This document shows, one piece after another, positions 2,211 through 37,124 of a stretch of 41,760 nucleotides of DNA. Below the pieces are notes generated by a model that saw nothing but the letters and a program-made list of their open reading frames with translations, did not search any database and had not been told where the DNA came from. Source of the DNA: a virus (taxonomy: Duplodnaviria; Caudoviricetes); the IMG/VR virus record IMGVR_UViG_3300008255_000217, positions 1-41,760 of that record, one strand, 5' to 3'. How positions within the stretch are numbered: position 1 is the stretch's first letter; every line of letters starts with the position of its first letter. A program made the translations under genes and the position numbers.

Positions 2211-3542
2211 ATGGGTATGTTTATCAAGGCGGTTGCCGCCCCTTTCAAGCTATTCAACGCGGTTTCGGATGAGATCGCAAAAAGCCGGCGGCTTTCATTG
2301 GTAAACGGGCCGGGATGGGCGGCGTTTGGCGGGCGCGAAAGCAACGCCGGCAAGCGGGTCAACATGGATACTGTGTTGCAGCTGTCGACTGCCTGGGCTT
2401 GCATCAAACTCAACGCGCAGGCGGTTTCGTCGCTGCCTGGCGCGATCTATGAAAAGCGATCTGACGACAGCCGGGTCAAGGTTGATGATGATGATGTCGG
2501 GCAGGTGATCTTCGACAGCCCGAACCAAGACCAGACTCCGCTCGAATACTGGGAGGGCACCGTTGCCTGGCTGATGACCAGCGGAAATGCCTACTCGGAA
2601 AAGGTGACGATCGGAAAGCGCCTGGTTGCACTCGATCCGATCATGAGCACGCATTGCAGGCCGGTTCGCAAGAGTGACGGAACTCTGGTCTATGAAATCC
2701 ACGACCGGGGGAAAACCGAGACGCTGCCGCGGGACAAGGTGTTTCACCTCAAAGGATTCGGCCAAGGGCTCAAGAGTGATGACGAAGGCATGTCGCCTAT
2801 CGCTGCCGGTGTGCATTCGCTGGGTGCGGCCATGGCCGCCCGTGACGCGGCGGCGACGACATTTGCAAATGGCATGCGGCCGACCGGCTTTTTCCTTTTC
2901 GATCAGGTTCTCGACAAGCCCCAGCGCGAGCAAGCGCACAATGCGCTTGTCAAACCATTGCAAGGATCGAGCCAGTCCGGTGGTGTCGGCATTCTCGAGG
3001 CCGGGGTCAAGTGGCAAGGCGTCAGCCTCAATCCTGAAGATGCGCAGATGCTTGAGACACGGCGCTTCGATGTCGAGGAAATCTGCCGCTGGTTCGGTGT
3101 TCCGCCGATCATCATCGGCCATGCCGGCGAAGGGCAGACCATGTGGGGGTCGGGTGTTGAGGCCATCCTGATCGCATGGCTGACGCTGGGTATTGACCCG
3201 ATCTGTGACCGGATCGAAGCACGGATTCGAAAGCAGTTGATCGCGCCCTATTCCAAGCCGCGCCGCTATGCGGAATTCAACCGCGAGGCCTTGCTGCAGA
3301 TGGATTCGGCGGCAAAGGCCGGGTTCCTTTCAACGATGGTGCAGAACGGACTTATGACCCGCAGCGAAGGCCGCGCCAAGCTCAACCTTCCGAAGATGGA
3401 AGGGGCTGACCAACTTACTGCGCAGACGAACCTTGCTCCACTGGATTCGCTTGGCGCGGACGGTCCAGGAATGCAGGCGCGGGCAGCGCTTGCGGCGTGG
3501 CTGGGGATCAATCAGGAAGGCAAAAAAGATGACCAAGCGTAG
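2211..3542 (+). CDS. HK97-family portal protein
   Basis: Motifs VFHLKGF, GMSPI, ILEAGVKWQ, DAQMLETRRF, EICRWFGVPP; position after terL. Confidence 0.95.
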   Translation: MGMFIKAVAAPFKLFNAVSDEIAKSRRLSLVNGPGWAAFGGRESNAGKRVNMDTVLQLSTAWACIKLNAQAVSSLPGAIYEKRSDDSRVKVDDDDVGQVIFDSPNQDQTPLEYWEGTVAWLMTSGNAYSEKVTIGKRLVALDPIMSTHCRPVRKSDGTLVYEIHDRGKTETLPRDKVFHLKGFGQGLKSDDEGMSPIAAGVHSLGAAMAARDAAATTFANGMRPTGFFLFDQVLDKPQREQAHNALVKPLQGSSQSGGVGILEAGVKWQGVSLNPEDAQMLETRRFDVEEICRWFGVPPIIIGHAGEGQTMWGSGVEAILIAWLTLGIDPICDRIEARIRKQLIAPYSKPRRYAEFNREALLQMDSAAKAGFLSTMVQNGLMTRSEGRAKLNLPKMEGADQLTAQTNLAPLDSLGADGPGMQARAALAAWLGINQEGKKDDQA

Positions 3543-4392
3543 ACTTCCGATGGCGGACATTGCAACCAAGCCGGGCTTGCGAACCGTAACGTCGCCCTCA
3601 TCGCTTGACCGGTGGAACCCCGGCGTCAAGGCGGCGGCGGAGCAGGATGGGGATGCGACAATTTCCATCCTCGATGTGATTGGCGCCGACTTCTGGGGTG
3701 AGGGCGTCACCTCCAAACGGGTGGCGGGTGCGCTTCGTGCGATCGGTGAGCGTGATGTGACGGTTTCGCTCAATTCGCCCGGCGGGGATTATTTCGAGGG
3801 GTTGGCGATCTACAACATGCTGCGCGATCACCCTGCCAAGGTGACTGTCAAGATCCTCGGGATCGCCGCTTCGGCGGCCTCGGTGATAGCCATGGCAGGC
3901 GACGAGATCCAGATTGCCCGGGCCGGGTTCCTGATGATCCATAACACCTGGGTCGTGGCAATGGGCGACCGCAACCAGTTGCGGGAGGTTGCAGATTGGC
4001 TCGAGCCGTTCGATCTGGCGGCGGTTGATATCTATTCCGCGCGCACCGGCATTTCCGCGGATGAACTGACGAAGATGCTTGATCGCGAAACCTGGATCGG
4101 TGGCAGCGCGGCTGTTGATCAGGGGTTCGCTGATGCTCTCCTCGACGCCGATGAGATATCGGCAGGGGCAAAGAACTCAGCGGGGAAAATTCACCCGGTT
4201 TCGGCCTGGCACAAGGTCGAAGCGCTGCTGGCGCAGGCAGGGTCGACCACGAGATCGGAGCGCCGGGAACTACTGGCCGCACTGAAAGGGGGCATGCCTG
4301 GCGCTGCCTCAACCGGCATGCAGGACGCTGCCGTCATCACCGAAGTTGAAAACCTATTGTCTGATATCCGGGCGATACGCGCCGGAGTCTGA
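3529..4392 (+). CDS. ClpP-like prohead maturation protease
   Basis: LNSPGGD, GIAASAASVIAMAGD, FLMIHN motifs; ATG 3529 preferred over the TTG 3433 of the ORF track. Confidence 0.92.
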   Translation: MTKRRLPMADIATKPGLRTVTSPSSLDRWNPGVKAAAEQDGDATISILDVIGADFWGEGVTSKRVAGALRAIGERDVTVSLNSPGGDYFEGLAIYNMLRDHPAKVTVKILGIAASAASVIAMAGDEIQIARAGFLMIHNTWVVAMGDRNQLREVADWLEPFDLAAVDIYSARTGISADELTKMLDRETWIGGSAAVDQGFADALLDADEISAGAKNSAGKIHPVSAWHKVEALLAQAGSTTRSERRELLAALKGGMPGAASTGMQDAAVITEVENLLSDIRAIRAGV

Positions 4393-4403
4393 AAGGAAAG
4401 CAC

Positions 4404-5729
4404 ATGTTGAAGAAAATGATGATGCCAGCGGTCTCGCTGGCCCTGCTCGCGGCTGCGCGTCCGGGCGCCGTTCTTGGCTCCGTTCGCGCCGAGGCCGACG
4501 CCGGCAAGCTGGAATCGCTTCTCAAGGACGTGAAGTCGGAAATGACCCGCGTCGGTGACGAGGTGAAGCGGACAGCCGAAGACGCCCTGAAACAATCCAA
4601 GGATGCTGGCAAGGCTTCCGAAGAGGTGAAGGCAAGGGCTGACGAGCTTCTGATGAGCCAGAAGAAGCTCGCCGACGCCCACGAGAAGATTGAGAACAAG
4701 CTCGAAGCTCTCGAAACCCGCAACCGCGATCTTGAGCAGCAGGTGGTCTCCGGCTCTCGTAATGGTGCCGAGCCGGTCAAGTCGTTTGGCGATCGCGCTG
4801 CAAATGATGAGGCGATGCGGGCCTATGCCGCCGGCGGCTCGCGTGGCACGGTCAGGATCTCGCTGCCGGTCAAGCAGGCGATCACCTCGGTCAGCCCCGG
4901 TGGTGGTGGCCTGATCTGGTCGGATCGCGAAACCGAAATCGTCGGACTGCCGCAGCGCACGATGACGATCCGCAACCTGCTGACCCAGGGCCGCACGTCC
5001 TCCAACAGCATCGAATATGCAAAACAGACCGTGCGGACCAACAATGCCGGTATGGTCTCGGAAGGCGTGCAAAAGCCTGAGTCCGATTACAAGTGGGAAC
5101 AGGCTGACGCGAATGTCCGCACGATCGCGCACTGGGTTCATGTCAGCCGCCAAGCGATGGAAGATGCCGATCAGCTGCAGACCGAAATCGACAGCGAGCT
5201 TCGCTACGGCCTGATGCTGAAGGAAGAAAGCCAGTTGCTCAATGGTGACGGCACCGGGGTCAATCTCTCGGGTCTGGCCACTGAAGCGACCGCCTATTCT
5301 GCGCCGTTCTCCGTCACCGGCGAGACCATGATCGACACCCTGCGGCTGGCTCTTCTCCAGGCATCGCTTGCGGAATACCCTGCCGATGGCATCGTGCTGC
5401 ATCCGACCGACTGGGCGCGTATCGAGCTGACCAAGGATGGCGAGTTCCGCTACATCTTCGCCAATGTCATCCAGATGTCGGGTCCGCAGCTCTGGGGTCG
5501 CCCGGTCGTTGCCACGCAGTCGATGACGGAAGATGATTTCCTTGTCGGTGCCTTCCGGGCAGCGGCCACGATATATGACCGGATGGATCCGGAAGTGGTG
5601 GCATCGTCTGAAGATCGCGACAACTTCATCAAGAACATGATCACCGTACGGGCCGAAGAGCGCCTGGCACTGGCGGTCAAGCGTCCGGCGGCGCTTGTTC
5701 TCGGTGATTTCGGCAACGTGTCCGGCTGA
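4404..5729 (+). CDS. HK97-fold major capsid protein with coiled-coil delta domain
   Basis: EGVQKPES, TIAHWVHVSRQAMED, LWGRPVV, RAEERLALAVKRPAA; RBS GAAAGGAAAG. Confidence 0.95.
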   Translation: MLKKMMMPAVSLALLAAARPGAVLGSVRAEADAGKLESLLKDVKSEMTRVGDEVKRTAEDALKQSKDAGKASEEVKARADELLMSQKKLADAHEKIENKLEALETRNRDLEQQVVSGSRNGAEPVKSFGDRAANDEAMRAYAAGGSRGTVRISLPVKQAITSVSPGGGGLIWSDRETEIVGLPQRTMTIRNLLTQGRTSSNSIEYAKQTVRTNNAGMVSEGVQKPESDYKWEQADANVRTIAHWVHVSRQAMEDADQLQTEIDSELRYGLMLKEESQLLNGDGTGVNLSGLATEATAYSAPFSVTGETMIDTLRLALLQASLAEYPADGIVLHPTDWARIELTKDGEFRYIFANVIQMSGPQLWGRPVVATQSMTEDDFLVGAFRAAATIYDRMDPEVVASSEDRDNFIKNMITVRAEERLALAVKRPAALVLGDFGNVSG

Positions 5730-5793
5730 TCCTGATTGGCTCATTACGTCGGGCGGTATTGGCCGCCCGATTCATGAACCAATGGAGTTTCAG

Positions 5794-6021
5794 ATGAAGA
5801 TCAAGGCATTGAGAACATTGACCGGAGACTATGGCACGGTCCGCCGCGGCGCTGTCGCCGAGCTGGCTGACGGCGTTGCAGAGCGTCTCGCCAAGCGGGG
5901 ATTGGTGAAACCTGTGTCGAAGGCCACGAAGGCAAAACAGGGGGCTGCCGGGACGGCATCGGCAAACCCTTCGAAAGCCCAAGTTGGTGGCCAGACTGGG
6001 AAGGGCAGACAGTCGTCATAG
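5794..6021 (+). CDS. Small basic post-capsid protein (putative head-associated)
   Basis: ATG 5794 after GGAG; MKIKALRTLTGDYG...; position typical of small HK97-like head genes. Confidence 0.65.
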   Translation: MKIKALRTLTGDYGTVRRGAVAELADGVAERLAKRGLVKPVSKATKAKQGAAGTASANPSKAQVGGQTGKGRQSS

Positions 6022-6590
6022 TCGCAGGCGGCCCTACTGCGACCGACGCTGATCTGGATTTGTGCGAGGGCAAGGCGCGGGTCATCACCGTCAACAATTC
6101 GTTCAAACTCTATCCCGATGCCGACATCCTTTATGCCTGCGATTATGCCTGGTGGGAGCACCACAAGGGGGCGCCCGACTTCAGCGGGCTGAAGCTGTCG
6201 ATCGACTGCAAGGCGGTATCCCGTCCCTGGGGGGTCCGCCAAGTGGGCATCAACAAGAAAGACGACCGGCTAGAATTGGTGCGGCGGGGCACGGTGGGCT
6301 GGGCCGGAAATGGTGGCTTTCACGCCTTGAACCTCGCTGTGCAGATGCATCCCGGAAAGATCGTGCTCGTCGGGTTCGACATGCGGATTGATCATGGTCT
6401 GCATTGGCACGGGGCGCATCCCTCGGGAATGAACAATCCTTCGCGCCGGAATGTGGAACGCTGGCGCCGCTGCATCGATGATGCCGCTGCGGTGATCTCG
6501 CGACTGGGAATATCCGTCATCAACGCAAGTCCGATATCGGCCTTGCAGGAGTATGAGAAAATGACCTTCGAAGAGGCGTTGTCATGTTGA
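5964..6590 (+). CDS. Maf/DUF115- or sialyltransferase-like (GT-A variant) protein, probably entered by -1 frameshift
   Basis: Frame open upstream of the TTG at 6060 and reads WWPDWEGQTVVIVAGGPT, then ITVNNS, GNGGFHALNLA, IVLVGFDM, HWHG, VINAS. Confidence 0.6.
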   Translation, partial: KPFESPSWWPDWEGQTVVIVAGGPTATDADLDLCEGKARVITVNNSFKLYPDADILYACDYAWWEHHKGAPDFSGLKLSIDCKAVSRPWGVRQVGINKKDDRLELVRRGTVGWAGNGGFHALNLAVQMHPGKIVLVGFDMRIDHGLHWHGAHPSGMNNPSRRNVERWRRCIDDAAAVISRLGISVINASPISALQEYEKMTFEEALSC

Positions 6591-7159
6591 TCCGGCTCTC
6601 TCAGCCCAGTGCCATGGCTTTGCCACTGGACGCTGCCAAGGCGCATCTGCGCCTCGATAGTGATGATGCCGATTCCGATGCCTTGATCACACGACTGATC
6701 AAGGCGGAAACCCGGCGTTACGAGGACTTCACCGGACGGATTATGTCCACCACTGACTTCCGCATGACTTGCCAATCGTGGTCTGATCCTTTGGTCATCC
6801 CGGCCGCGCCAGTGCGTAGTGTCACTGCAGTCAAGTATTCTGATGCTGACCATGCTCTGCAGACGGTCGATCCCTCGGACTGGGCTTTTGTATCAACGTC
6901 ATCGGGTGGAGAGATTTGGTTCGAATCCGGCTTTTCGCTGCCGACCCTTTCGACGCGGCCTGATCCGGTGTGGGTCGAATTTCAGGCCGGATATGACGAT
7001 CCTGATGCTTCGGGATCTGGTGATGATCCGGAGTTGGAGGCGGTTGAGGCGGACCAGAGGACGATCAGCATGATGGTGGCCAGGATCCACGATCATGATA
7101 TGGCGATACCGGACGATGAGCTTCGCAGAATCGCCGGCACAAGGAGGATCTTGCGATGA
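6584..7159 (+). CDS. Head-tail connector (HK97 gp6/SPP1 gp15-like)
   Basis: LDAAKAHLRLD...DALITRLIKA, PVRSVTAVKY, VEFQAGY. Confidence 0.88.
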   Translation: MLIRLSQPSAMALPLDAAKAHLRLDSDDADSDALITRLIKAETRRYEDFTGRIMSTTDFRMTCQSWSDPLVIPAAPVRSVTAVKYSDADHALQTVDPSDWAFVSTSSGGEIWFESGFSLPTLSTRPDPVWVEFQAGYDDPDASGSGDDPELEAVEADQRTISMMVARIHDHDMAIPDDELRRIAGTRRILR

Positions 7160-7680
7160 TCGGCCTGGGGACTTTCGTCCATCCGCTGGCGTGTCTTGAT
7201 GACAGCTGCCTGGTCGGGGAGAGGGTTCGGATCTATCAGTTTTCCAGCGTCATCCGCGGAGCCTGTATCGGGGATGAGACGGTTATTGCTGCGGGTGCAT
7301 GTGTCGACGGCACCATTGTTGGAAAGCGCTGCATCGTTTCGCCCGGCGTGGATATGGGGCCGGGTTTCGAGATCGGTGACGATGTCTTTCTCGGTCCGCA
7401 TGTGGTGCTTTGCAATGACTATTGGCCACGCACACACAAGAGCGGATTTGACTATGACGCTCTGCGCCGGGGTGACGTTGTTTGCATCCGCATCAGCAAC
7501 GGCGCGTCGATTGGAGCTGGCGCGAAGATAATGCCGGGGCTGACGATCGGCGAAGGTGCGATGATCGCCGCGAATTCGGTGGTGACGGGCGATGTGCCGG
7601 CAAACTGCATCTGGCGTCATGGCGGTGAGATCCGTGCCATACGTGACGAAGACCGGATAGTGCGGGTGCGGCCGTGCTGA
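7156..7680 (+). CDS. Hexapeptide-repeat (left-handed beta-helix) acyltransferase
   Basis: Repeated IG/VG hexads, IGDDVFLGPHVVLCND, IGEGAMIAANSVVTGDVPAN, like sugar N/O-acetyltransferases. Confidence 0.88.
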   Translation: MIGLGTFVHPLACLDDSCLVGERVRIYQFSSVIRGACIGDETVIAAGACVDGTIVGKRCIVSPGVDMGPGFEIGDDVFLGPHVVLCNDYWPRTHKSGFDYDALRRGDVVCIRISNGASIGAGAKIMPGLTIGEGAMIAANSVVTGDVPANCIWRHGGEIRAIRDEDRIVRVRPC

Positions 7681-8288
7681 CCGTCGCCACGCTGTTCTGG
7701 CGGGCGAATCAGGCATCAAGGGACTTTTCCCGGTGCTATGATGAGGTCTGGGTTGAAAAACTCTACCGAGGCTTTGCGCGGCACCTGTCGGCTCCGTTTC
7801 GTTTCGTCTGTTATGTCGACCGGGACTATGAGTTTTGCGAGCCGATCGAGCAACGGCGGATATCAGCGCAAGTTCCCGATTATTCGACCTGCATCGAACC
7901 ATATGAACTCGGTGTTCCGATGATCCTGTGCGGCCTGGATACAATGATCACCGGCAATATAGACGGACTTGCCGAGTATTGCATGACGGCCACCCGGCTG
8001 GCGCTGCCTCGGGATCCTTACAACAAGCGTCAGGCCTGCAATGGTGTGGCGCTCATCCCTTCCGGTTATGAACGGGTAGCGACAACGCATTCCGGTGAAA
8101 ACGATATGGTGTGGGTGCGCGGGTTTGACCATGTGTTTATCGATGATCTTTTCCCTGGCCAAGTCGAAAGCTACAAGGGGTCGATCATGCGGCAGGGGCT
8201 TGGTGATGCGAGGATCGTCTATTTCCACGGCCACAAAAAGCCACATCAGCTTTTTCACAAAAGACTGGTTCAGGAGCACTGGATCTGA
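7674..8288 (+). CDS. Putative GT-A glycosyltransferase (GT8-like)
   Basis: VEKLYRGFARHLSAPFRFVCYVD, degenerate DxD (GLDTMITGNID), C-terminal IVYFHGHKKPH. Confidence 0.72.
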   Translation: MLTVATLFWRANQASRDFSRCYDEVWVEKLYRGFARHLSAPFRFVCYVDRDYEFCEPIEQRRISAQVPDYSTCIEPYELGVPMILCGLDTMITGNIDGLAEYCMTATRLALPRDPYNKRQACNGVALIPSGYERVATTHSGENDMVWVRGFDHVFIDDLFPGQVESYKGSIMRQGLGDARIVYFHGHKKPHQLFHKRLVQEHWI

Positions 8289-9776: not shown

Positions 9777-10229
9777 ATGACTTCTGTACCCCGCATTTCC
9801 GGGTCGAAGCTGCTTGTCCAGATCGGAGATGCAGCCTCGCCGGAGACTTTCACGCATGACTGCCTTATCAACACCCAGCGCGGCATTCAATTCAGTTCCG
9901 ACACGCAGGAACACATCATGCCGGACTGTGACAATCCGGATGATCCTGCCTGGAAAGATGTGAGCAAGGACGGCCTGTCTATCACTGTGACCGGCGCAGG
10001 CATGCTTTACACATCTTCGGTCGAAACCTGGTGGGACTGGTTCAACAGCGACGACGCGAAAAACTGCCGCATCAACCTCAATGTCGCCGGTGCCAGTGGC
10101 GGTGGTTATTGGGCGGTTCCGATGAAGCTGACGAGCATGGAGATCAGCGCTGATGACAACAAGGCAACGGCAACCTGTCAGGTGACGCTTGTTTCGAATG
10201 GCGCTGCGACATGGACGGCCAACGCCTGA
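9777..10229 (+). CDS. Major tail tube protein
   Basis: GSKLLVQIGDAASPETF, PDCDNPDDPAW, VTGAG; RBS GGAGA. Confidence 0.88.
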   Translation: MTSVPRISGSKLLVQIGDAASPETFTHDCLINTQRGIQFSSDTQEHIMPDCDNPDDPAWKDVSKDGLSITVTGAGMLYTSSVETWWDWFNSDDAKNCRINLNVAGASGGGYWAVPMKLTSMEISADDNKATATCQVTLVSNGAATWTANA

Positions 10230-10603
10230 TGGGCCGGCACGCGGCTGTCGAGCTGGATTTCGCAGACGGGACATACACGTTTCGTCTGTCGGTTTCAGGA
10301 ATCGAGGAACTGGAAGGCAAGGTCAGGCGAGGAATATTCCAAATTGCCGATGATCTCGACCCGGCGGTCCGATCAGCGCGGATCAAGACGATCAGTGAGA
10401 CGATCCGAATAGGGTTGATCGGTGGCGGAATGCCACCTGCAGACGCCCTGGCGCTGACCCGACGTTATGTTGATGAGCGGCCGCTGCCTGAAAACCTCCT
10501 GCTTGCCTATTCCGTTGTGCTAGCGGGGATCTCCCGGGTCAACGGCACGGAAATCCCGAAGGAGAGCGCCTCGGGGGAGGCGGACGCGGCGGAGACGGGT
10601 TAA
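10229..10603 (+). CDS. Tail assembly chaperone (GTA gp10-like, lambda gpG equivalent)
   Basis: FADGTYTFRL, IRIGLIGGGM; between tail tube and tape measure genes; start by TGATG overlap. Confidence 0.85.
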   Translation: MGRHAAVELDFADGTYTFRLSVSGIEELEGKVRRGIFQIADDLDPAVRSARIKTISETIRIGLIGGGMPPADALALTRRYVDERPLPENLLLAYSVVLAGISRVNGTEIPKESASGEADAAETG

Positions 10604-10791
10604 CCGATTTCGCCGCGATCTACGCTTCGGCTGCATTGATGAATGGCATCCCGCCGAGCGAGGTGGAGAATATGTCCATGGGACAATGGTTTGCGCTGGC
10701 CGCAGGATGGAACAAGGCTCACCGGCAAGATGTAGAGCCGCCGAGTGTTGAGGAATTTGAGGCCGCCGTTCTTGCGGCAAGAGGTGTCTGA
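10573..10791 (+). CDS. Tail chaperone C-terminal extension (gpT equivalent) via -1 frameshift
   Basis: -1 frame reads DFAAIYASAALMNGIPPSEVENMSMGQWFALAAGWNKAH, ends TGA overlapping tape measure ATG; slippery G GGG GAG at 10573-10579; absent from ORF track. Confidence 0.75.
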   Translation, partial: GGGGRGGDGLTDFAAIYASAALMNGIPPSEVENMSMGQWFALAAGWNKAHRQDVEPPSVEEFEAAVLAARGV

Positions 10792-17184: not shown

Positions 17185-20100
17185 ATGACATCCTCAAAGA
17201 CGCTTGAATCCACGCGCTACGGCGCGGGGAACCGCAACATTGCGGATACCGACTTCTCGATCTATCACCGCGACCAGGTGGTAAACTCGGGCGTCGATAC
17301 CGTCGCGGATTTCCGGCTCACAGATTGGGAGTTCCAGAAGTGCATTCTGGTTCGCGAGATGGGCGCGATCTACACCTATGACCCTGCGAGCACAGCGGCG
17401 GATGATGGTGATGCTGTCCTTCATGACAACCTCGGGCGCCGTTATCTCAAGGGCGCGTTTGATGGGGCTGCTGTTCCAGGGACTGATGGTGCTCCCGGCG
17501 GGTCATTCGCCTTTGCATTCGACGGCGCATCACAGACGATGGCAGACCCTGGGCCGGGGCTTTTCCGCCTGAACAATGCCACGCCAGCAAGCGCGACGGC
17601 CATGGCTCTGGCGGCCGACCTTTCGGACTCGTCGGATGTATCCGCGCTCATTACCGCCAGATTGCAATCCACGTCGACGGTCAAGGCCCGCCTCGTCGTT
17701 ACCAACGGGACAAACCGGCTTGAATACGATGTGACCGGCGTGTCTGATAACGGGGCATGGGTCCAGCTTACGCTTGATAACGGCTCGATTGTCGGCTCGT
17801 TGAGCGATGAGGCGCCGTGTGCTCTCGTCTTCTCTGAAACCGGTGATCGTGGCGATGACGGCCAGGCCTTCGATCATAACGGCGTCGGCGTCCCGTCAAA
17901 TGGCCTTGGAGAGGACGGAGAGACCTACCTCAATATTGCGAACGGCGACACCTACATCAAGGCTGCAGGGGATTGGGGTTCTCCCTCTGGTGACATACTC
18001 GCCACAATCCTCGGAGACTACACCGAGCTCGTCAACCGCCGCGAGTTCGAATCTGTCGCTGACCTTGCTGCAGCAACGATCGCAGGAACAACAAAGCGGG
18101 TTAGAACTGCGGCCTACGATCCACTTTACGCAGATCTTTCTACGATGGGAGGCGGGTGCGATCATGTTCGCATTTCAAAAGCGGACTTTGATTCAGCTGG
18201 CTTCCCTGATCTGGCTCTGACGAGAAGTCAGGACCGCTTGATGCCGGATGGTGTTACGGTAGATGCCACGAATGGCGGGTACTGGTTGGCTGTCGCGACC
18301 GGCGCCATCAATATTGCCATTTTTGGGGCGCGTCAGGGGTCAGCGAGTTATGCCGAGCGGAACTCTGCGGCGCTCCAGGCTGCGCTCGATTATTGGGTTG
18401 CCAGCCCTTTTGCTGATGCGGTTATCACCAGCGATCCGGGCACCTGGCGGTTCGACCCCTCGTCGTTCGTCGTTAACCCCGGCGGTCCGTTCAAAAACAT
18501 CACGATCGAGGGCGACGGCCGTTTCGGCACAACCTGGGAAACCGAGCTATCTGGCACGGACAGCATTTTCCTGGACAACTCCCCTGGCGGTGTAGCGGAC
18601 CGGAATTGCCGCTTCTATCTACGCCGGATCAAGCTCGTCTCACGCAATGCTGATGGCACTGTTTGCCCTATCTTCGTTCGCAATCTCAACTGGCTTGAGG
18701 GATGCTTTGAAGATGTGGGCACAGTACAGGGAAGCCAGGGGCAGATTGGCAATACCCACACTGTTCTGTCCGGCATATGGAACGCTGATATCGTCAATTG
18801 CCACTCTAATGGCGGTGGCCTTTATGTGCCGGCCAACCCGCTGAGTGATACTGTCCGGTTTACTCTGACGGCTGATAGCGCAATTGTCGAAGCGACAGAA
18901 GCTGTTTTCAGCGAGGACGATGAGGGCATCAAATTCATCTTCGGGCCTGAAGGCGGTGCATGGGTCGGAACGGTAGCCAGCTACGACAGCCCTACGCAAG
19001 TTACGATGACCGAGCCTTCCCCATACTCATCCGGCGCCGGTGCGGAGATTGCTTATTCTGAACCCATCAGGGCAACCACTACGGCTTCGGGGACCACGGT
19101 AACGGTAAACCGTCCTCGAATGGAGGAAAGCCATGTCGGGCGGTATGTGGTTATCCGTGGGGCAGGGACGTCCAGAAGTCGCCGCTCCTTCCATCGCGCA
19201 AAAATCCTGAGTGTGGCAGGGGATGGGTTGTCGTTTACCATGGATCGACCAGCGGTATACGCGGTCTCTCCTTCCGATTCGGCCGCCACCAGCGCGCGCG
19301 GAGCGATGGCCATTTCGCCGGTTCACCTGGTTCTCTACGACGGGAACACGGCGAACACCACCAACGACATCACTTTCATCAACTTCCGGATCGAGTTGTT
19401 CCGTGGGGTTGGTCTGGTTATCGAGGACGGTGTCCAGCTGAAATTCACCGAACAGAAAATCCATGGCGACGGGCTCCCCACGGCAGAGATCGCTACGGGC
19501 TACCGGCCGGATTATCACAGCCAAGCAGGCATGTGGATTCAGTCACGCGGAGGGTTCTGGAAGGGCGGGTCGCTCGAGGCCGCGGGTTTCGATGATGGGC
19601 GGATCGTTTGTTCCGGCTCTGAGCAGTTCAAGGTCAATGATGTGTGCTGCCGGTGTAACATCGATCAGGCAATCCTGTTCTCTGAGCACCCTTATGGCCA
19701 GTTTGCGGAGTTCAGATTGGGAGATGCGCTAATCTACAACCAGCAGTGGGATATGACGACTGCCGGCCTCACATCACATGAATATATCGCGGGCAGAGGC
19801 GCCCAGGTTCTTGAGCATATTGGGAGTGTCAACCTAAGCTCTACCTTCAACAAAAGGTTGGCATCGGGAAACAGTACAGCCAATAGCGGCGGCGCCGGCC
19901 AGACTGTGTCGAACGGGGTGACGCTGAAAATCAAGATGCCGCCAACCCGCAGAAATGACGGCCTCAACTCTCAAGGCTCGATCGAGTTCTTCCTGAGTGA
20001 TGCGTCAAACGCGAAAGTCGGCTTCACCACAAATGGCGCTGGGTATCATCATTGTACCTTGAGCTACGGTGGCAGCCTTTGGGCTGTAAGCGACACTCCC

Positions 20101-20211
20101 GAATTTGAAACAACGGGCAAGATCACAGTCTCATGTGATGATGACTACATCTACGTGGTCAACGATTCCGTATCGCGCTTCATGACATGGGACATTCGCA
20201 GAGGCCAATAA
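17185..20211 (+). CDS. Tailspike / putative polysaccharide depolymerase
   Basis: 1008 aa; pectate-lyase-3-like entry INIAIFGA...NSAALQAALD followed by beta-helix-like sequence; last gene of tail module. Confidence 0.72.
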   Translation: MTSSKTLESTRYGAGNRNIADTDFSIYHRDQVVNSGVDTVADFRLTDWEFQKCILVREMGAIYTYDPASTAADDGDAVLHDNLGRRYLKGAFDGAAVPGTDGAPGGSFAFAFDGASQTMADPGPGLFRLNNATPASATAMALAADLSDSSDVSALITARLQSTSTVKARLVVTNGTNRLEYDVTGVSDNGAWVQLTLDNGSIVGSLSDEAPCALVFSETGDRGDDGQAFDHNGVGVPSNGLGEDGETYLNIANGDTYIKAAGDWGSPSGDILATILGDYTELVNRREFESVADLAAATIAGTTKRVRTAAYDPLYADLSTMGGGCDHVRISKADFDSAGFPDLALTRSQDRLMPDGVTVDATNGGYWLAVATGAINIAIFGARQGSASYAERNSAALQAALDYWVASPFADAVITSDPGTWRFDPSSFVVNPGGPFKNITIEGDGRFGTTWETELSGTDSIFLDNSPGGVADRNCRFYLRRIKLVSRNADGTVCPIFVRNLNWLEGCFEDVGTVQGSQGQIGNTHTVLSGIWNADIVNCHSNGGGLYVPANPLSDTVRFTLTADSAIVEATEAVFSEDDEGIKFIFGPEGGAWVGTVASYDSPTQVTMTEPSPYSSGAGAEIAYSEPIRATTTASGTTVTVNRPRMEESHVGRYVVIRGAGTSRSRRSFHRAKILSVAGDGLSFTMDRPAVYAVSPSDSAATSARGAMAISPVHLVLYDGNTANTTNDITFINFRIELFRGVGLVIEDGVQLKFTEQKIHGDGLPTAEIATGYRPDYHSQAGMWIQSRGGFWKGGSLEAAGFDDGRIVCSGSEQFKVNDVCCRCNIDQAILFSEHPYGQFAEFRLGDALIYNQQWDMTTAGLTSHEYIAGRGAQVLEHIGSVNLSSTFNKRLASGNSTANSGGAGQTVSNGVTLKIKMPPTRRNDGLNSQGSIEFFLSDASNAKVGFTTNGAGYHHCTLSYGGSLWAVSDTPEFETTGKITVSCDDDYIYVVNDSVSRFMTWDIRRGQ

Positions 20212-22251: not shown

Positions 22252-23109
22252 ATGCAAAAGTGGTTGGTCTTATCAAACTGCCAAACGGTAGGTCTCGCAA
22301 ATTGCCTCACGTTGATGACAAAGGGGATCGAGATCACAGGGTTCAACGCCAATCAATTCGGGCGAGATCTCGACAACATCAACGCCAGTATCCCGGGGTT
22401 TGACCGAGTTATCGTGCATAGGACGGCTGAGAGCGTTCCTGGTGCACGTATTGACACAGCCAGGCTTATCAACCGGGTGCCGTCTATAGAATTCCGCGCC
22501 TATCACCCAGACACGACATTCGCATTTATTGGTCCTCACTATCTCCAGGGGCCGATGAACGCGAATCATTCGCTGATTCTCCTCGCGGCGCACGAGCTCG
22601 GCATAGGCGCGGATGACGCGATCAAGCTCTTCTGTCCGGAGGTCTTTGGAGCATGTGGTTATTTTGACCTCTGGGAAATGGAGCGAGACGCGATGCTCAG
22701 GCCCTTTGATGCCGCAGGCATAAGCTTGCATGACACGGCGCTCAGGTGGGGCAGGCATGAGCCATTCATGCATACATTCAATCACCCGAAAATTCGCTGC
22801 CTATTCGATCTCGCGGATGCGTTCCTAAGTTCGGTTGATGTGCCGCATTCAAGAGTGGACCTGCTTCCTGTCGATAATCTTGTTTTCGGGCCATGTTACC
22901 CTGTCTACCCGGCCATCGCCGAGCGATACGGGGTCTCAGGCAGCTATGATTTCAAGCCGCAATCAGGATATTCCGTGATTGGCCTTAGAGAATTTGTGGT
23001 TGGCAGCCTGGATGTCTATCGCGCTCATCCCGTGGGATCGATAAAGCCGGACGCAGCGGTGCAAGCCAGGTTCGATCTGGTCAAGCATGTGATTCAGGAG
23101 TTTATATGA
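22252..23109 (+). CDS. WcbI-like polysaccharide biosynthesis/acetylation protein
   Basis: N-terminal SNCQ, FRAYHPD, FMHTFNHPK motifs. Confidence 0.72.
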   Translation: MQKWLVLSNCQTVGLANCLTLMTKGIEITGFNANQFGRDLDNINASIPGFDRVIVHRTAESVPGARIDTARLINRVPSIEFRAYHPDTTFAFIGPHYLQGPMNANHSLILLAAHELGIGADDAIKLFCPEVFGACGYFDLWEMERDAMLRPFDAAGISLHDTALRWGRHEPFMHTFNHPKIRCLFDLADAFLSSVDVPHSRVDLLPVDNLVFGPCYPVYPAIAERYGVSGSYDFKPQSGYSVIGLREFVVGSLDVYRAHPVGSIKPDAAVQARFDLVKHVIQEFI

Positions 23110-24161
23110 TGAGCAACCCTTATTCAGGTCTGCAGGATTATCAGTTCTGGCGGCGAAGCGTTTCGCGTGTTGAGCCTCATCGCCTGGATCCAGTTGTCGC
23201 GCCAAAGTTCTCGATCGAGAAATCAGATCTTGTCGCGACGGCCGGGAGTTGCTTCGCGCAACACATTTCCCGAAAGCTGAGCCAGATCGGGTTCTCGTAT
23301 TACGTCCCCGAAGACGGAGAAGGGATTGCTGCAACTGAACGCAGCGCACGGAACTTCGGTGTTTTCTCTGCCAGGTACGGCAACATCTACACCACGCACC
23401 AACTTCTGCAGTTGTTCTCTGAGGCTGTGGTGGGGCGGAAGCCTCATGATCTTGCGTGGCAAAGGTCAGATGGGCGGTACGTCGATCCATTCCGCCCGCA
23501 GGTGGAGCCTGAGGGGTTCAGCACGCAGGATGAGGTTGTGGCGGCCCGGCAGGAACACCTCGCCAAAGTTCGAGATGTATTCCTGAAATCGAACGTGTTG
23601 ATCTTCACGCTTGGCCTGACAGAGTCATGGCGTTCGAAAGTCGATCATTCGGTTTTCCCACTCGCGCCAGGTGTTGCTGGTGGAAGCTTTGATGAGACTG
23701 TTCATGAGTACGTCAATTTCGGCGTTGATGAGGTGTTCGAAAGCCTCAATAACTTCCTGACCCTGTTGAAAGGCGTTAACCCCGAAGTCAAAGTGCTGCT
23801 TACTGTATCCCCGGTTCCGCTGATTGCGACCTATGAGGACCGGCATGTCATCGTCTCTACAGTCTACAGCAAGTCGGTCCTGCGGGTAGCCGCAGAAATG
23901 GCAACGAAGGGGCGCGATTGGGTTGACTATTTTCCGTCATACGAAATCATCACGTCGAGCGCATCAGGTGGCGCATATTATGCGGAAGACTATCGGGAAG
24001 TGACGCCGGTTGGCGTTGCGCATGCAATGCGCTGCTTTGTCAATCATTATGCAGGGGAGGGGCAGCAGCAACCTGCCCCGATCGACCCGGATTTGCAACG
24101 CCTTCGCGATGAAGCTACCGGGGTTGTGTGTGACGAGGAAGCGCTTGACGCCATAGGCTAG
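23106..24161 (+). CDS. GSCFA-family (SGNH-like) protein
   Basis: TAGSCFAQHI, FTLGLTESW, LTVSPVPL, SKSVLR, YFPSYEI. Confidence 0.92.
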   Translation: MMSNPYSGLQDYQFWRRSVSRVEPHRLDPVVAPKFSIEKSDLVATAGSCFAQHISRKLSQIGFSYYVPEDGEGIAATERSARNFGVFSARYGNIYTTHQLLQLFSEAVVGRKPHDLAWQRSDGRYVDPFRPQVEPEGFSTQDEVVAARQEHLAKVRDVFLKSNVLIFTLGLTESWRSKVDHSVFPLAPGVAGGSFDETVHEYVNFGVDEVFESLNNFLTLLKGVNPEVKVLLTVSPVPLIATYEDRHVIVSTVYSKSVLRVAAEMATKGRDWVDYFPSYEIITSSASGGAYYAEDYREVTPVGVAHAMRCFVNHYAGEGQQQPAPIDPDLQRLRDEATGVVCDEEALDAIG

Positions 24162-31137: not shown

Positions 31138-31193
31138 TTCGAGGATCAAGGCCCGCCGGCGCGTGTGGCCAGTCGCCCGAAAAGGAAAATCCG

Positions 31194-31433
31194 ATGATTG
31201 AGATGGTTCGTGTGCTGGCCGACGCCTGGCTGATCGTGCTGGCGCTTGCCGCCTGCGGTTTCGTTGCCTCCGATTTTGACCGGACGCGGCGGGCAGACTG
31301 GTTTGCCCTGATCCTGATGCTGCCTGCGATCGTGTGGGGGCTGCTGCTTGCCGCGGTGGATCTGTGGGGTGTCGCCGGTCGCTGGCCGGGCACGCTGTGG
31401 GCAATGATTGCGGGGCTTTTGAACATCGGCTGA
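31194..31433 (+). CDS. Small membrane protein
   Basis: AAGGA RBS; 2-3 hydrophobic segments. Confidence 0.6.
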   Translation: MIEMVRVLADAWLIVLALAACGFVASDFDRTRRADWFALILMLPAIVWGLLLAAVDLWGVAGRWPGTLWAMIAGLLNIG

Positions 31434-31569
31434 CTGGCTCCTTACGGGGTTTCGGTCAGCTGCGAGATAACCAGTTCCAGGCGTTTCCCACATTGGGAAA
31501 ATCTTCGGGAATTTCCCGGAGCGGGAACGATGTGCGCCGGGCCCTGGCCGGCAAGAGCAGGAGAAAGAT

Positions 31570-32067
31570 ATGAGCGCGATTTCAACAGCATGGCAACACC
31601 GGATCAAGTCTGCGCAGCGCGATCTGATCGCCCGGTGCGGCGGGATCGAGCGGGCGGGCGAAATCACCTCTTTCGGCAAGAGCAATGTCGGGCGCTGGAA
31701 CAGCCCGACCGATCCGGACCTGATGCCGCTCAACGCGGTGCTGGCGCTGGAAGCCGATGCCGGCGTGGCGCTGGTCACCTCGGTGATGGCCGGGCTGAAC
31801 GGGCGCCGCGTGGTCGAGGCCGACTGCGAGGGGGCCGGGCCATCTGCGGTGTTTGCCAAGCACGCCGAGGCGGTGCGGGCCGCAGGCGATTTGATGAGCG
31901 CAGGCGCGCAGGCCTTTGCCGATGGTGTTCTGACACCGGCGGAGATGGCGCTGATCGACCGCGCCGCAAGCCAGGTTGAGGCGGCTCTGGTCTCCCTGCG
32001 CCTGTCGATCGGGCAGGGCAAGGCGGACGGGGCGCAGGTGGTGCAGTTCGGGGCGGCTGAGAAATGA
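31570..32067 (+). CDS. CII-like phage regulatory protein
   Basis: [18 protein letters not shown]...[21 protein letters not shown]; position after cro. Confidence 0.65.
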
Positions 32068-32348
32068 GCGGTCCGGGGCACAATTCCTCCGATGGCGGGG
32101 CTGTCGCCCGTGACCAGCTGCGGTCGATCGTTGAGCGGATCGAGCGGCTGGAAGAGGAAAAGAAGGTGATCGGCGACGACATCAAGGCTGTCTACGGCGA
32201 GGCCAAATCCAACGGCTTCGACGTCAAGGTTTTGCGCCGGGTGATCGCCATCCGCAAGCAGGACCAGAACGACCGGCTGGAGCAGGAAGCCATTCTCGAC
32301 ACCTATCTGCATGCGCTGGGGATGGCGCCAGAGCCGGAGGATGGATGA
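32064..32348 (+). CDS. GapR-like (DUF2312/UPF0335) DNA-binding protein
   Basis: [18 protein letters not shown]...[20 protein letters not shown]...YLHALGM. Confidence 0.92.
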
Positions 32349-33220
32349 TGCGAAAGATCGAGGTATCCAAGTTTCTCAAGACCGACAGTGAGCCTGGTCC
32401 TGCGCCAATGTTGCAATGGCTGGAGATTGACCAACTGGTGGTCGATGACAGTTATCAGCGTGAACTGAAGGTCGGCAACTGGAAGGCTATTCACCGGATT
32501 GCCACCGGGTTCCGGTGGTCCCGGTTTTCGCCTGTGTTTGTTTCCCCCGTCGAAGGTGGGCTTTACGCCATTATCGACGGGCAGCACCGGGTTCATGGGG
32601 CTCGGATGGCGGGCATTGAAAGTGTGCCCTGCCAGGTTGTTCACATGACGCGGGAGGAGCAGGCGGCAGCTTTTGCGGCGGTCAATGGCGATGTGACGAA
32701 GGTCACGGCATGGCAGGTTTTCAAGGCCGCGTTGGCGGCTGGTGAAAGTTGGGCTGTGGAGGCTGCCAGTGCCGCGGCGGAGGCCGGGTGCGAGCTGATG
32801 ACCTCGAACACGAGCAGCTGGACCAAGCAGCCAAAGCAGATTTACGCCGTTACCGGCTTTCGCAAGATGCTTGCCTCCTACAAGCGTCCTCACATCATTG
32901 CTGCGCTGACTGCAATCGCCAGTGCCGAAGGCTATGCAGACAGCCCCGAGCCTTGGGACGGCAGCGTTTTGCTGCCGATGCTTGCCGCCTGTGCGCAACG
33001 CCCGCGCGCTGTGGCACACGGGGATGTCTTTATCGAGTTTCTCGAGTTGTGGCCCATCTGGGATGAGGTTGAGCGTATCCATGTGGCGACGAGAGACCGG
33101 ATCCGGAAGGGGCTGCCCTATGTCGGCAAGAAGGAGCAGCTCGAAAGCGCGCTCATAGATGCGATCGACCGGAAGTTTGTCGATCGGATCAGGCTGCCCG
33201 AACCGGAGGGTGAGGGATGA
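32345..33220 (+). CDS. ParB/Srx-like N-terminal domain protein
   Basis: [18 protein letters not shown]. Confidence 0.78.
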
Positions 33221-34803: not shown

Positions 34804-35282
34804 TGGAAGGCAGGGCGATGTTTGACAAGATAATTGCGATCTCGGAACGGCGTGGCCCGGACATTGAAATCGGCGGGTCTGAAGACCCCTATCTGCGCCG
34901 CTGGTACATCATCCCGCGCAATCGCTGGTTCAATGTTTACCTGCATGAATTCTGCCGCTCCGATGATGACCGGGCGCTGCATGATCATCCCTGGTGGAAC
35001 ATGTCGCTGCTGCTGCGCGGGCAATATACCGAACACACGATCGCCAAGGGCGGCGTCAACATCCGGACGGTGCGCTGCGCGGGGCAGTTCAAGTTTCGCG
35101 GGGCGAGATCTGCGCATCGGATCGAGCTGACGCATGGGCATTGCTGGACCTTGTTCATCACCGGGCCGCGGCTGCGGGAATGGGGATTTCACTGCCCGCA
35201 AGGATGGCGGCACTGGAAGATTTTCACCAGCGGCGAGCGTGGTGAGCTGGTTGGGCGCGGCTGTGGCGAGGATGACTCCTGA
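34800..35282 (+). CDS. Cupin-like conserved phage protein
   Basis: YLHEFCRSDDDRALHDHPW...GQYTE...HRIEL...WTLFITGP. Confidence 0.65.
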   Translation: MMEGRAMFDKIIAISERRGPDIEIGGSEDPYLRRWYIIPRNRWFNVYLHEFCRSDDDRALHDHPWWNMSLLLRGQYTEHTIAKGGVNIRTVRCAGQFKFRGARSAHRIELTHGHCWTLFITGPRLREWGFHCPQGWRHWKIFTSGERGELVGRGCGEDDS

Positions 35283-36517
35283 TGAATGCCGGGGTCGAAA
35301 GCCAGGCGCTGGCGCTTGCGGAGAGCATCAGGGATCTGCCGCGTGGCGGGGCTTCGGTGCCGGTGGCGATTGCGCCTTGTGAGGATCTGGCCGGGCTGGT
35401 GATGCGGGCGCGGGCGCTCTTGGATGATGGCGACGTGGCGGCAGCAAGGCTGCTGGCCGATGCAGCCTATGGGCAGGCGGCGACGGCGGCGGGTGCTGCG
35501 GGCAAGATAAGGGCGTCCGCCGCGCTGGTGGCCAAAGCACACCGGCTGCAGGGCGATGCGCTGCTGATCGAGGCGCAGGCGCGGATGCGGATTGCCGATG
35601 AATGGGACACTGCCGAGGCCAATGGCCAGATCAGCCGGGGCGGGCGTCCGGCGAAACATCAGGATCAGGAAGGTGAAAAACCCGTATCCAGCAGAAACGG
35701 GTTTACCGCCGCTGACACCGGGTTGAGCCGCAAGCAGATCTCCGAAGCGCGGCAATTGCGCAATGCCGAACGCAAAAGCCCCGGCATTGCCGAGCGGGCG
35801 ATTGCGGCGCGGCTGCAGCAGGGGCTGGCGCCGACCAAGGCCAATTTGCGGGTGGCAGTGGGGACGGCCACGGCGACGAAGGAAGATCGCGGGCTGAATC
35901 TATACCAGACGCCAGCCGAAGCGATGCGGGTGCTGCTGGCGCTGGAAGCCTTCGGGCCGCTGGTGCTGGAGCCTGCCTGCGGGCGTGGCGCGATCAGCGT
36001 GCCGGTCGAGGCGGCGGGGCATGAGGTGCTGCTGTCCGATATCGAGGATTACGGCACGGCTGACCAGCACGGCACCTGTCAGGCTGTGGCAGATTTCCTG
36101 ACGACGAAGCGTCGCAATTTTGTCGAGCCTGATGAGGTTGTCGATATCATTACCAACCCGCCTTACGGCTCGGACATGAATGCTTTCATCGCCCATGCGC
36201 TGAGAGAATTCCGGCCCGGCAAGATGGCGCTTTTGCTCAACCTCAACGCCTATGCCGGCTTTGATGATGCGGACCGCAATTTCTATTTCGATGAATGGCC
36301 GCCTGCGCGGATCTACGTGTTTTCGCGGCGGCTGCCGATGATGCACCGCGATGGCTGGGATGGCCCTGTGGCGTCGAGCCGGATGAACACGGCGTGGTTT
36401 GTCTGGGAACGGGTGTTCGGGGCAAACGATGCCAACCGCTATGGCGACGGGCCGAAGATCTCCCGGGTTGACTGGAAGGACTTTGAAGACCGTTCCCCGC
36501 TGGGGGTGATGGCATGA
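35282..36517 (+). CDS. Amino (N6-A/N4-C) DNA methyltransferase with N-terminal helical domain
   Basis: SAM motif VLEPACGRG, catalytic IITNPPY. Confidence 0.8.
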   Translation: MNAGVESQALALAESIRDLPRGGASVPVAIAPCEDLAGLVMRARALLDDGDVAAARLLADAAYGQAATAAGAAGKIRASAALVAKAHRLQGDALLIEAQARMRIADEWDTAEANGQISRGGRPAKHQDQEGEKPVSSRNGFTAADTGLSRKQISEARQLRNAERKSPGIAERAIAARLQQGLAPTKANLRVAVGTATATKEDRGLNLYQTPAEAMRVLLALEAFGPLVLEPACGRGAISVPVEAAGHEVLLSDIEDYGTADQHGTCQAVADFLTTKRRNFVEPDEVVDIITNPPYGSDMNAFIAHALREFRPGKMALLLNLNAYAGFDDADRNFYFDEWPPARIYVFSRRLPMMHRDGWDGPVASSRMNTAWFVWERVFGANDANRYGDGPKISRVDWKDFEDRSPLGVMA

Positions 36518-36804
36518 GGCCCGAATTTTCACCGGAAATGCTGCGGCTGTTTCTCATGGCGCGGATCTCCGATGCAGTGTTTCGTGCTGGCGGTCCGAAG
36601 CCTGCAGGTGGGGTGCGCTACGATGCCACGCGCAAGGCCAAGGCAGTGATCCGCAAGGCGGCTGGTGTGACCAATTTCGAATTCAATTTTGCCTGGGCGG
36701 GGCGGCTGAATGATGCCGCACCTCGGGCAAGGCTGTGGGGGGCGATGGGCTGTGTGCCTGCCGACCACGGCATCACTTTGACGGATGATGGAGGGCAGCA
36801 ATGA
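36514..36804 (+). CDS. Hypothetical protein
   Basis: ATGA-coupled, 96 aa. Confidence 0.55.
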   Translation: MRPEFSPEMLRLFLMARISDAVFRAGGPKPAGGVRYDATRKAKAVIRKAAGVTNFEFNFAWAGRLNDAAPRARLWGAMGCVPADHGITLTDDGGQQ

Positions 36805-37124
36805 CCGGACTTCAAAACAGTCGCAACCCGGCGCGGGCGGATTTTGACTGGCGCATGTTTGCGCAGTCGATCCGCACCGCATGTGCTGCAGACGGACGCT
36901 CACAATGGGCGTTGGCTCAGGAAATCGGCATCACCGAAAGTGACCTTTCGCGGGTGCGCGGAGGGGCCATGGTGAGTGTCGGAAAGGCCATTGCATTGGC
37001 GCGATGGCTGAAATTGCCGCTCGAAAACTGGTATCTTGCGCCGCTTCCGGAGCCGCCTCTCAAGGCAGTGAAATCAAGGCCTTGCACCACTCCAAACGTG
37101 AAACATCGCGAGGCTGCGCAATGA
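36801..37124 (+). CDS. XRE-family HTH protein
   Basis: SQWALAQEIGITESDLSRV. Confidence 0.72.
   Translation: MTGLQNSRNPARADFDWRMFAQSIRTACAADGRSQWALAQEIGITESDLSRVRGGAMVSVGKAIALARWLKLPLENWYLAPLPEPPLKAVKSRPCTTPNVKHREAAQ

Follow-up and report, generated by a model that had tools for sequence, protein, structure and literature searches.

How does a phage make an enzyme domain whose reading frame has no start codon of its own? The question is raised by a small gene and an overlapping transferase-like reading frame in a virus record of 41,760 bases, the whole of which we refer to as the window. The window encodes terminase, portal, protease, HK97-type capsid, long-tail, lysis, integrase, repressor and replication genes, and by this gene content it is a temperate siphophage. 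Its nearest named relatives belong to Nitratireductor, Rhizobium, Ensifer, Mesorhizobium and Paracoccus, which makes an alphaproteobacterial host probable. A preliminary description had proposed that ribosomes slip by -1 at the heptamer A_AAC_CCU, followed by a hairpin, and thereby fuse the two products. On the basis of comparisons among homologous loci, we suggest that a conserved programmed -1 frameshift very probably does yield a minor fusion of the small domain to the transferase, and that it takes place at the tetramer C_CCU.

Reading frames and gene neighbourhood

All genes of this module are on the + strand. The small gene (5794-6021; phrog_2616, E 4e-12) comes directly after the gene of the HK97-type major capsid protein (4404-5729; PF05065, E 1e-64; phrog_10). 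A GGAG ribosome-binding site is seen at 5784-5787, 6 nt 5' of its ATG at 5794, and AAAGGAGG precedes the equivalent ATG in the homologous locus L002. Frame 0 closes at the TAG at 6019-6021 and gives a 75-aa product made up of a folded domain, an Ala-rich linker and a short tail. The -1 frame is open from 5871 to 6590 and, as the preliminary description stated, holds no ATG, GTG or TTG before the TTG at 6060. From 5967 to 6590 it encodes a 207-aa Maf/GT42/MptE-like transferase domain without its own start, recognized by fold and by its match to phrog_4603 (E 7e-50). In the structural model of this frame (pLDDT 96.7), strand 1 lies at residues 14-18, counted from 5970, while the TTG at 6060 is residue 31; a start at this TTG would therefore cut the transferase fold, in agreement with the earlier claim that the first canonical start removes strand 1. 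The heptamer AAACCCT at 5964-5970 is likewise present as described, in phase with the reading frame from ATG 5794 (GCA AAC CCT TCG). It is the sole phased X_XXY_YYZ heptamer in the overlap, and such heptamers occur at 8 of the 4006 codons of seven long ORFs in the window. A slip at this position predicts a fusion of 58 + 207 = 265 aa. The junction carries no sign of an assembly indel, a possibility that the preliminary description had raised: two independently assembled contigs from other runs span it with 0 differences and 0 gaps (X4, 5528-6227; X7, 5784-6267), as does a contig that is possibly not independent (X1), also without differences.

The start of the next gene, encoding a head-tail adaptor (6584-7159; phrog_442, E 1e-17), overlaps the transferase stop. 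It is followed by a hexapeptide-repeat acetyltransferase gene (7156-7680), for which the closest NCBIfam model, a NeuD/PglB/VioB sugar acetyltransferase, scores below its cut-off, and by a second glycosyltransferase-like gene (7674-8288; phrog_1962, E 3e-39). This pair (7156-8288) is placed within the head-neck module, with the head-tail adaptor gene on one side and the head-closure gene on the other. In the flanking DNA fetched for 53 frameshift-type loci, homologues of the two were seen in 14 and 17 loci, respectively. Elsewhere in the window, no PHROG match was found for a 1008-aa ORF located behind the tail fibre genes or for four further ORFs of 258-387 aa (17185-20211, 22252-24161 and 31146-33082), and two DNA methyltransferase genes lie directly upstream of the replication initiator (35282-39139).

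Conservation of the overlapping layout

To assemble homologous loci, three collections were scanned, in two of which the best 80 of 342 and the best 80 of 281 confirmed matches were kept, and three phage records were added. The resulting 206 matches, minus 42 duplicates, seven without the anchor motif and three with too little upstream DNA, gave 154 loci. In 63 of these the small domain is in frame 0 and the transferase in frame -1, so that the overlap noted in the preliminary description is conserved; a further two loci are in-frame fusions, 75 have a transferase with its own start and no domain, and 14 have neither a start nor a detected domain. All but one of the 63 layout loci lack an ATG, GTG or TTG 12-40 codons before the anchor, the exception being L068, which has an in-frame ATG 32 codons upstream despite the layout. 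The transferases are diverse, with a median pairwise identity of 51% and 29 sequences left after dereplication at 60%. Where enough DNA was present, 48 of 53 frameshift-type loci have the end of the capsid gene at most 700 nt upstream, as opposed to none of 48 own-start loci; this was determined by tblastn, for which the capsids of own-start loci may be too distant; by eye, many own-start loci follow a head-tail adaptor gene.

The layout is also found in the isolate genomes L083 (Nitratireductor indicus C115), L089 (Paracoccus denitrificans DSM 413) and L090 and in the phage record NC_020840. The latter, the only cultured-virus record with the layout that was examined, is annotated with two separate genes and a truncated enzyme. 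This record (L125) is labelled Tetraselmis viridis virus S20 but classed in Caudoviricetes. Its region 3106-7411 has the same shift, GAC CCT TTG, with a stop directly before, and then a cluster that comprises a glycosyltransferase gene, another homologue of phrog_4603 and a methyltransferase gene. Of the 40 matches to a search for 'longer' proteins, 39 were 0-frame-type products and one was a fusion; a tblastn search with the small domain against cultured phages gave no match.

The conserved unit of the probable shift site is a tetramer

Among the 63 layout loci, 57 have C_CCU in phase, five have only U_UUU and one (L108) has neither. The domain profile was built from C_CCU-carrying loci of the first set, which makes the count for that set circular in part. 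A fairer test is the metagenome set, which was fetched only once the motif had been defined, though a few loci in it closely resemble earlier ones. In this set all 18 layout loci have a tetramer (15 C_CCU and three U_UUU) as opposed to one of 32 own-start loci. C_CCU is also present in 12 of the 14 unclassified loci, and in the total of 75 own-start loci C_CCU and U_UUU occur six times and once, respectively. The motif is tied to one phase: among the first 48 loci without a start, CCCT is in the shift phase in 41 and in the other two phases in one and none, compared with 4, 3 and 2 of 41 own-start loci. The U_UUU variants fall in two clades.

The heptamer did not hold up as the conserved unit. 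AAACCCT is found at 6 of 43 sites and at 8 of 51 in the larger set, any XXX_CCC_U heptamer at 13 of 51, and C_CCU_UUN at 15 of 51. The codon before CCU (n=51) is CGC in 15 loci, GAC in 11, AAC in 9, GGC in 6 and CAC in 4. Because this codon varies but always ends in C, the conserved unit is the tetramer, and from this comparison the shift site in the window is C_CCU at 5967-5970, read as AAC CCU in frame 0 and as CCC UUC in frame -1, rather than the heptamer. The site is kept in dozens of distant phages.

Two further features of the sites were observed. In 43 of 51 loci the codon that follows CCC in the -1 frame (5970-5972 in the window) encodes Phe or Tyr, even though the distance to the domain ranges from 3 to 111 nt. 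L108 (~2900-3040) has the layout without C_CCU or U_UUU, a 0-frame stop at the anchor and a frame-0 ATG before the motif; perhaps the shift takes place elsewhere in this locus, or the gene is broken.

In PMC4066793, six tetramers were shift-prone in E. coli when combined with a pseudoknot (in the order A_AAG, U_UUC, U_UUU, C_CCU equal to C_CCC, and A_AAA; 0.26-5.6%); C_CCU and U_UUU, both used here, are on this list. According to the same source, such tetramers are barely shifty without a stimulator. The weak C_CCU needed a strong 3' pseudoknot in E. coli, which counts against the proposal, no convincing 3' structure having been found here.

Selection changes frame and natural fusions fix the junction

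Of 67 dereplicated frameshift-type loci, 11 have a stop in the -1 frame at a distance of 0-3 codons before the site, which in L125 and L158 directly precedes CCC, and 18 have no ATG, GTG, TTG, CTG, ATT, ATC, ATA, ACG, AAG or AGG before the W-P-x-W motif. Because of these close stops and the lack of even near-cognate starts, independent initiation is unlikely. In all 67 loci frame 0 extends past the motif, whereas 24 of 62 own-start loci have a frame-0 stop within 12 codons. When the window is compared with L002, synonymous and non-synonymous changes number 16 and 3 in the small domain, read in frame 0, and 57 and 26 in the transferase body, read in frame -1; the 17-codon overlap, with 3 to 3, is uninformative. 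By these substitution patterns, selection changes frame across the shift site.

Some relatives encode the fusion in a single frame. Eight in-frame domain-transferase fusions were found, namely L063 and L077 (= P0161) and, by eye, P0038, P0043, P0049, P0071, P0121 and P0124, and they are located at no fewer than three places on a FastTree tree. L063 aligns without gaps to the trans-frame product predicted for its sister L145, and the same is true of L138 and the product predicted for its sister L051; because both pairs are colinear, the register of the junction is fixed. In L051 (~2950-3050) the C_CCU shift is kept behind a 13-codon leader without a folded domain, and in L138 (~1260-1360) the same leader is in frame with its own ATG. 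The fusions P0121 and P0124 extend into methyltransferase-type (PF13578) and further domains and reach 770-775 aa.

With the layout in 63 of the 154 loci, C_CCU in 57 of these, one phase strongly preferred and fusions occurring naturally, the proposal of a -1 frameshift with a fusion product is strongly supported.

A distant SD-like tract is a candidate stimulator

Upstream of the shift site, the window has an SD-like GGGGG (5940-5944), 23 nt from the CCU codon, where most relatives have GGAGG; the difference is a Glu to Gly change that keeps the SD likeness. Of 67 loci, 41 have GG[AG]GG at a distance of 14-30 nt on the 5' side of the CCU codon, compared with 13.7 ± 3.0 expected (maximum 25 in 1000 synonymous resamplings), and after dereplication at 60% in 14 of 28 compared with 4.2 ± 1.5, with the reservation that the 14-30 nt range was picked after the data had been seen and that the loci are related. 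The spacing has its mode at 23 nt (23 of 41 loci), and 26 of the 67 loci have no such tract. The strength of anti-SD pairing exceeds the null by 2.4 ± 0.3 kcal/mol, while in a control 12 codons upstream it falls short of the null by 0.6. Known -1 SD stimulators are located 9-14 nt upstream (PMC5009743), or 6-17 nt in PMC4066793; here GGAGG was found 5-13 nt upstream in none of the 67 loci, at odds with the usual 9-14 nt. An SD-like tract at 14-30 nt, farther away than known -1 stimulators, would be new here. We lean slightly towards the view that it stimulates the slip; alternatively, the tract could pair with the shift site in free mRNA.

Between the tract and the site lies a weak GCC-N5-GGC mini-stem (5947-5957), assigned from pair counts. 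Its 3-bp core is present in 17 of the 23 loci with 23-nt spacing, compared with 6.9 ± 2.0 under the null; in the same 23 loci its mean folding energy is no better than the null and there are no two-sided compensations. Such a stem could shorten the effective SD distance.

Downstream of the site, the hairpin of the preliminary description (5978-6000) can be drawn, within 5977-6006, but it folds no better than shuffled sequence (z -0.59; 53 of 200 shuffles fold equally well). Across loci, downstream folding has a mean z of -0.95 compared with -0.48 in own-start controls, with z < -1 in 18 of 43 compared with 9 of 41. The core pairs of the hairpin derive from conserved W-W-P codons and are also present in own-start homologues; the sole enriched pair is a synonymous U-A in the W-W-P loop (21 of 51 compared with 2 of 48). 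The hairpin is not supported as a class-specific stimulator.

Protein folds of the transferase and the small domain

Fold comparison was by VIA-align. The modelled transferase domain matches Maf (5mu5; Z 15.7, rmsd 3.1, 183 aligned residues), the kinase HPPK (12.2), SteA (11.7), CstI (2p56; 10.6) and GT29 (9.5) and, as far as the model goes, has a variant Rossmann GT fold. It shares this fold with Maf, CstI, GT29 and MptE-HPPK, but with only 9-17% identity and as a bare 207-aa domain without the other domains of Maf. Among curated families, PF01973 scored 16 bits against a cut-off of 34.6 and no NCBIfam model matched, leaving only phrog_4603; a sequence search of the PDB gave no match, and matches in BFVD are uncharacterised or MptE-like viral proteins.

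The small domain (~residues 1-41, 5794-5916; pLDDT ~90 over residues 1-40) is modelled as an L9-N/GINS-B/gpFI-C-like beta-beta-alpha fold. Its matches are 5ghr (Z 6.8), L9 (6.4), gpFI-C (2lsm; 4.9, rmsd 1.1 over 41 residues, 29% identity) and YqbF of the skin element (2hjq; 4.8). This fold is common: all Z scores are below 8, and L9 and GINS score equal to or above gpFI-C. The lambda gpFI and YqbF genes, too, are positioned after a capsid gene. By sequence, the domain has weak DUF7302 and DUF7210 matches and, in PDB sequences, only insignificant L9 and GINS matches, and none of the 50 members scanned against Pfam matched the FI family. The likeness to gpFI is one of fold, a fold also seen in L9 and GINS; the domain is C-terminal in gpFI, which has no enzyme attached. 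The 0-frame tail is net positive in 59 of 67 loci, a figure without a control. gpFI is described as bound to the prohead capsid lattice (PMC4856287), and Maf enzymes are described as O-glycosylating a structural protein with nonulosonic acids.

Proposed mechanism and alternative explanations

Based on these data, we propose that the small gene very probably makes the 75-aa product and, when a minority of ribosomes slip by -1 at 5967-5970, as is likely, the predicted 265-aa fusion. The tRNA-Pro would, again very probably, re-pair from CCU to the cognate CCC in a single-tRNA slip of the Z_ZZN type, and decoding would resume at UUC. The shared domain would then bind the prohead or capsid as gpFI does, and because of this proposed binding few copies of the enzyme would be recruited among many short ones, the logic of G/GT applied to the head. 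From the gene position, the likeness to the gpFI-C fold and the in-frame fusions, we give capsid tethering of the enzyme through the shared domain an even chance. That the enzyme adds a sugar, probably of the nonulosonate or Kdo type, to virion proteins is a possibility to which we give slightly less weight.

Several other explanations of the locus were considered. The window derives from a single metagenomic contig and an assembly error or a decayed gene could mimic the layout, yet independent contigs are identical across the junction, the layout recurs in three isolate genomes and NC_020840, and the -1 frame is under purifying selection, making this explanation next to negligible. The transferase could also initiate independently at a non-canonical codon, ATT 5901 or ATC 5958, with the SD-like tract as its ribosome-binding site: in the window the ATC is three codons before CCC and 13 nt after GGGGG, an ATC is found 3-5 codons before the site in 7 of 43 loci, and low-level SD-driven initiation at AUA was seen in the assay of PMC4066793. 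Because 18 of 67 loci have no near-cognate codon and L125 and L158 have their stop directly before CCC, and because such a start leaves the in-phase C_CCU, the U_UUU substitutions and the colinear fusions unexplained, we regard it as very unlikely. Transcriptional slippage adding one base to the mRNA is less probable again. Hairpin-driven slippage of this kind is known, and in several loci G-rich 5' sequence can pair with the site; against it, there is no long homopolymer, folding of the whole region is only 0.8 ± 0.4 kcal/mol below the null, and the motif is tied to one phase (41/1/0), which RNA polymerase cannot sense. A further alternative, that of the preliminary description, is a tandem slip of two tRNAs on A_AAC_CCU with the 3' hairpin. 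The heptamer is present and phased in the window, and with XXX_CCC_U or C_CCU_UUN at a part of the sites, tandem slips may raise the rate at some loci including this one. However, most loci have CGC, GAC, GGC or CAC before CCU, mixed purine/pyrimidine heptamers are poor in E. coli (PMC4066793), and the hairpin is not significant; we consider a tandem slip improbable, and its product would be identical anyway.

More serious is the possibility that the frameshift is real but only keeps the enzyme scarce, the domain having no role in targeting and the substrate being something other than the capsid, such as the host surface or a small molecule. The shift without a folded domain in L051 fits such dosage control and argues against tethering as the sole purpose; moreover, 75 of the 154 homologues stand alone, HPPK and SteA share the transferase fold, and P1 pmgO is found outside the head operon, as a non-essential gene (PMC10695390). 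On the other hand, the in-frame fusions retain the domain and arose more than once, and stand-alone homologues are still found among virion genes, with one of them, PAJU2 ORF10, annotated as 'structural protein'. We see this explanation as a substantial possibility, but one clearly short of an even chance.

Relation to known systems and implications

The frameshift proposed here resembles that of lambda G/GT (PMC5009743) in that a small gene follows a major virion gene, a low-level -1 shift joins a second frame without a start, and the two products share their N-terminal domain. It differs in belonging to the head instead of the tail, in adding an enzyme, in using the tetramer C_CCU instead of a heptamer and in coexisting with in-frame and stand-alone relatives. 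The TAC fold and the position between the major tail and tape-measure genes that characterize G/GT are not those of the small gene; the TAC of the window is the tail assembly chaperone at 10211-10603 (PF11836). Its gene ends ACG GGT TAA, with a -1 frame that continues uninterrupted into the following ORF (10636-10791), and 17 nt upstream of the GGT codon lies a GGGGGAGG tract. At 10570-10791 the sequence thus has a probable second, G/GT-type frameshift at G_GGU beside the stop, again with a distant SD-like tract.

The shift site itself is closer to the Z_ZZN sites of the IS3 family (PMC4066793), for which C_CCU and U_UUU are tested shift-prone tetramers with cognate re-pairing and an SD-like 5' stimulator is known; IS elements favour A_AAG and U_UUY with strong 3' structure, however, whereas here C_CCU dominates and no 3' structure is evident. 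In T3, T7, A2, A118, A500 and PSA (PMC5009743), frameshifting also supplies a head-related protein with an additional domain in a few copies. Extensions of the T3/T7 type add mostly Ig-like domains to the major capsid protein, whereas here an accessory gene receives a transferase. Phage-encoded glycosyltransferases modify capsid proteins in mycobacteriophage Che8, as cited in PMC11256854; those phages infect a different host phylum, and the passages used of that paper mention no frameshift-made fusion. Full-text literature searches, in which most subscription journals are not covered, and term searches within PMC3711429 and PMC10783043 gave no description of this frameshift; the supplements of PMC3711429 and PMC4066793 list predicted frameshift clusters, possibly including this family. 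The present locus contributes the test of tetramer against heptamer, the exchange of C_CCU for U_UUU in some loci, the colinear in-frame fusions and the SD-like element at an unusual distance.

Production from the -1 frame would explain the truncated N-termini called in such genes (P0001, P0013 and TVGG_00049). A role in head-targeted glycosylation is plausible. The complete chain, in which the distant SD-like tract and the mini-hairpin drive a single-tRNA slip and a few Maf-like enzymes, loaded on the prohead by a gpFI-like domain, glycosylate the capsid of alphaproteobacterial phages as a widespread but unannotated head-module system, is tentative and rather unlikely to hold in every part. 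The frameshift proposed here would be a second conserved programmed one in tailed-phage morphogenesis beside that of the tail G/GT, and it would deliver an enzyme; it would show the weak C_CCU tetramer in use in nature together with an SD-like signal that is unusually far away, and it would point to virion glycosylation in phages of Alphaproteobacteria.
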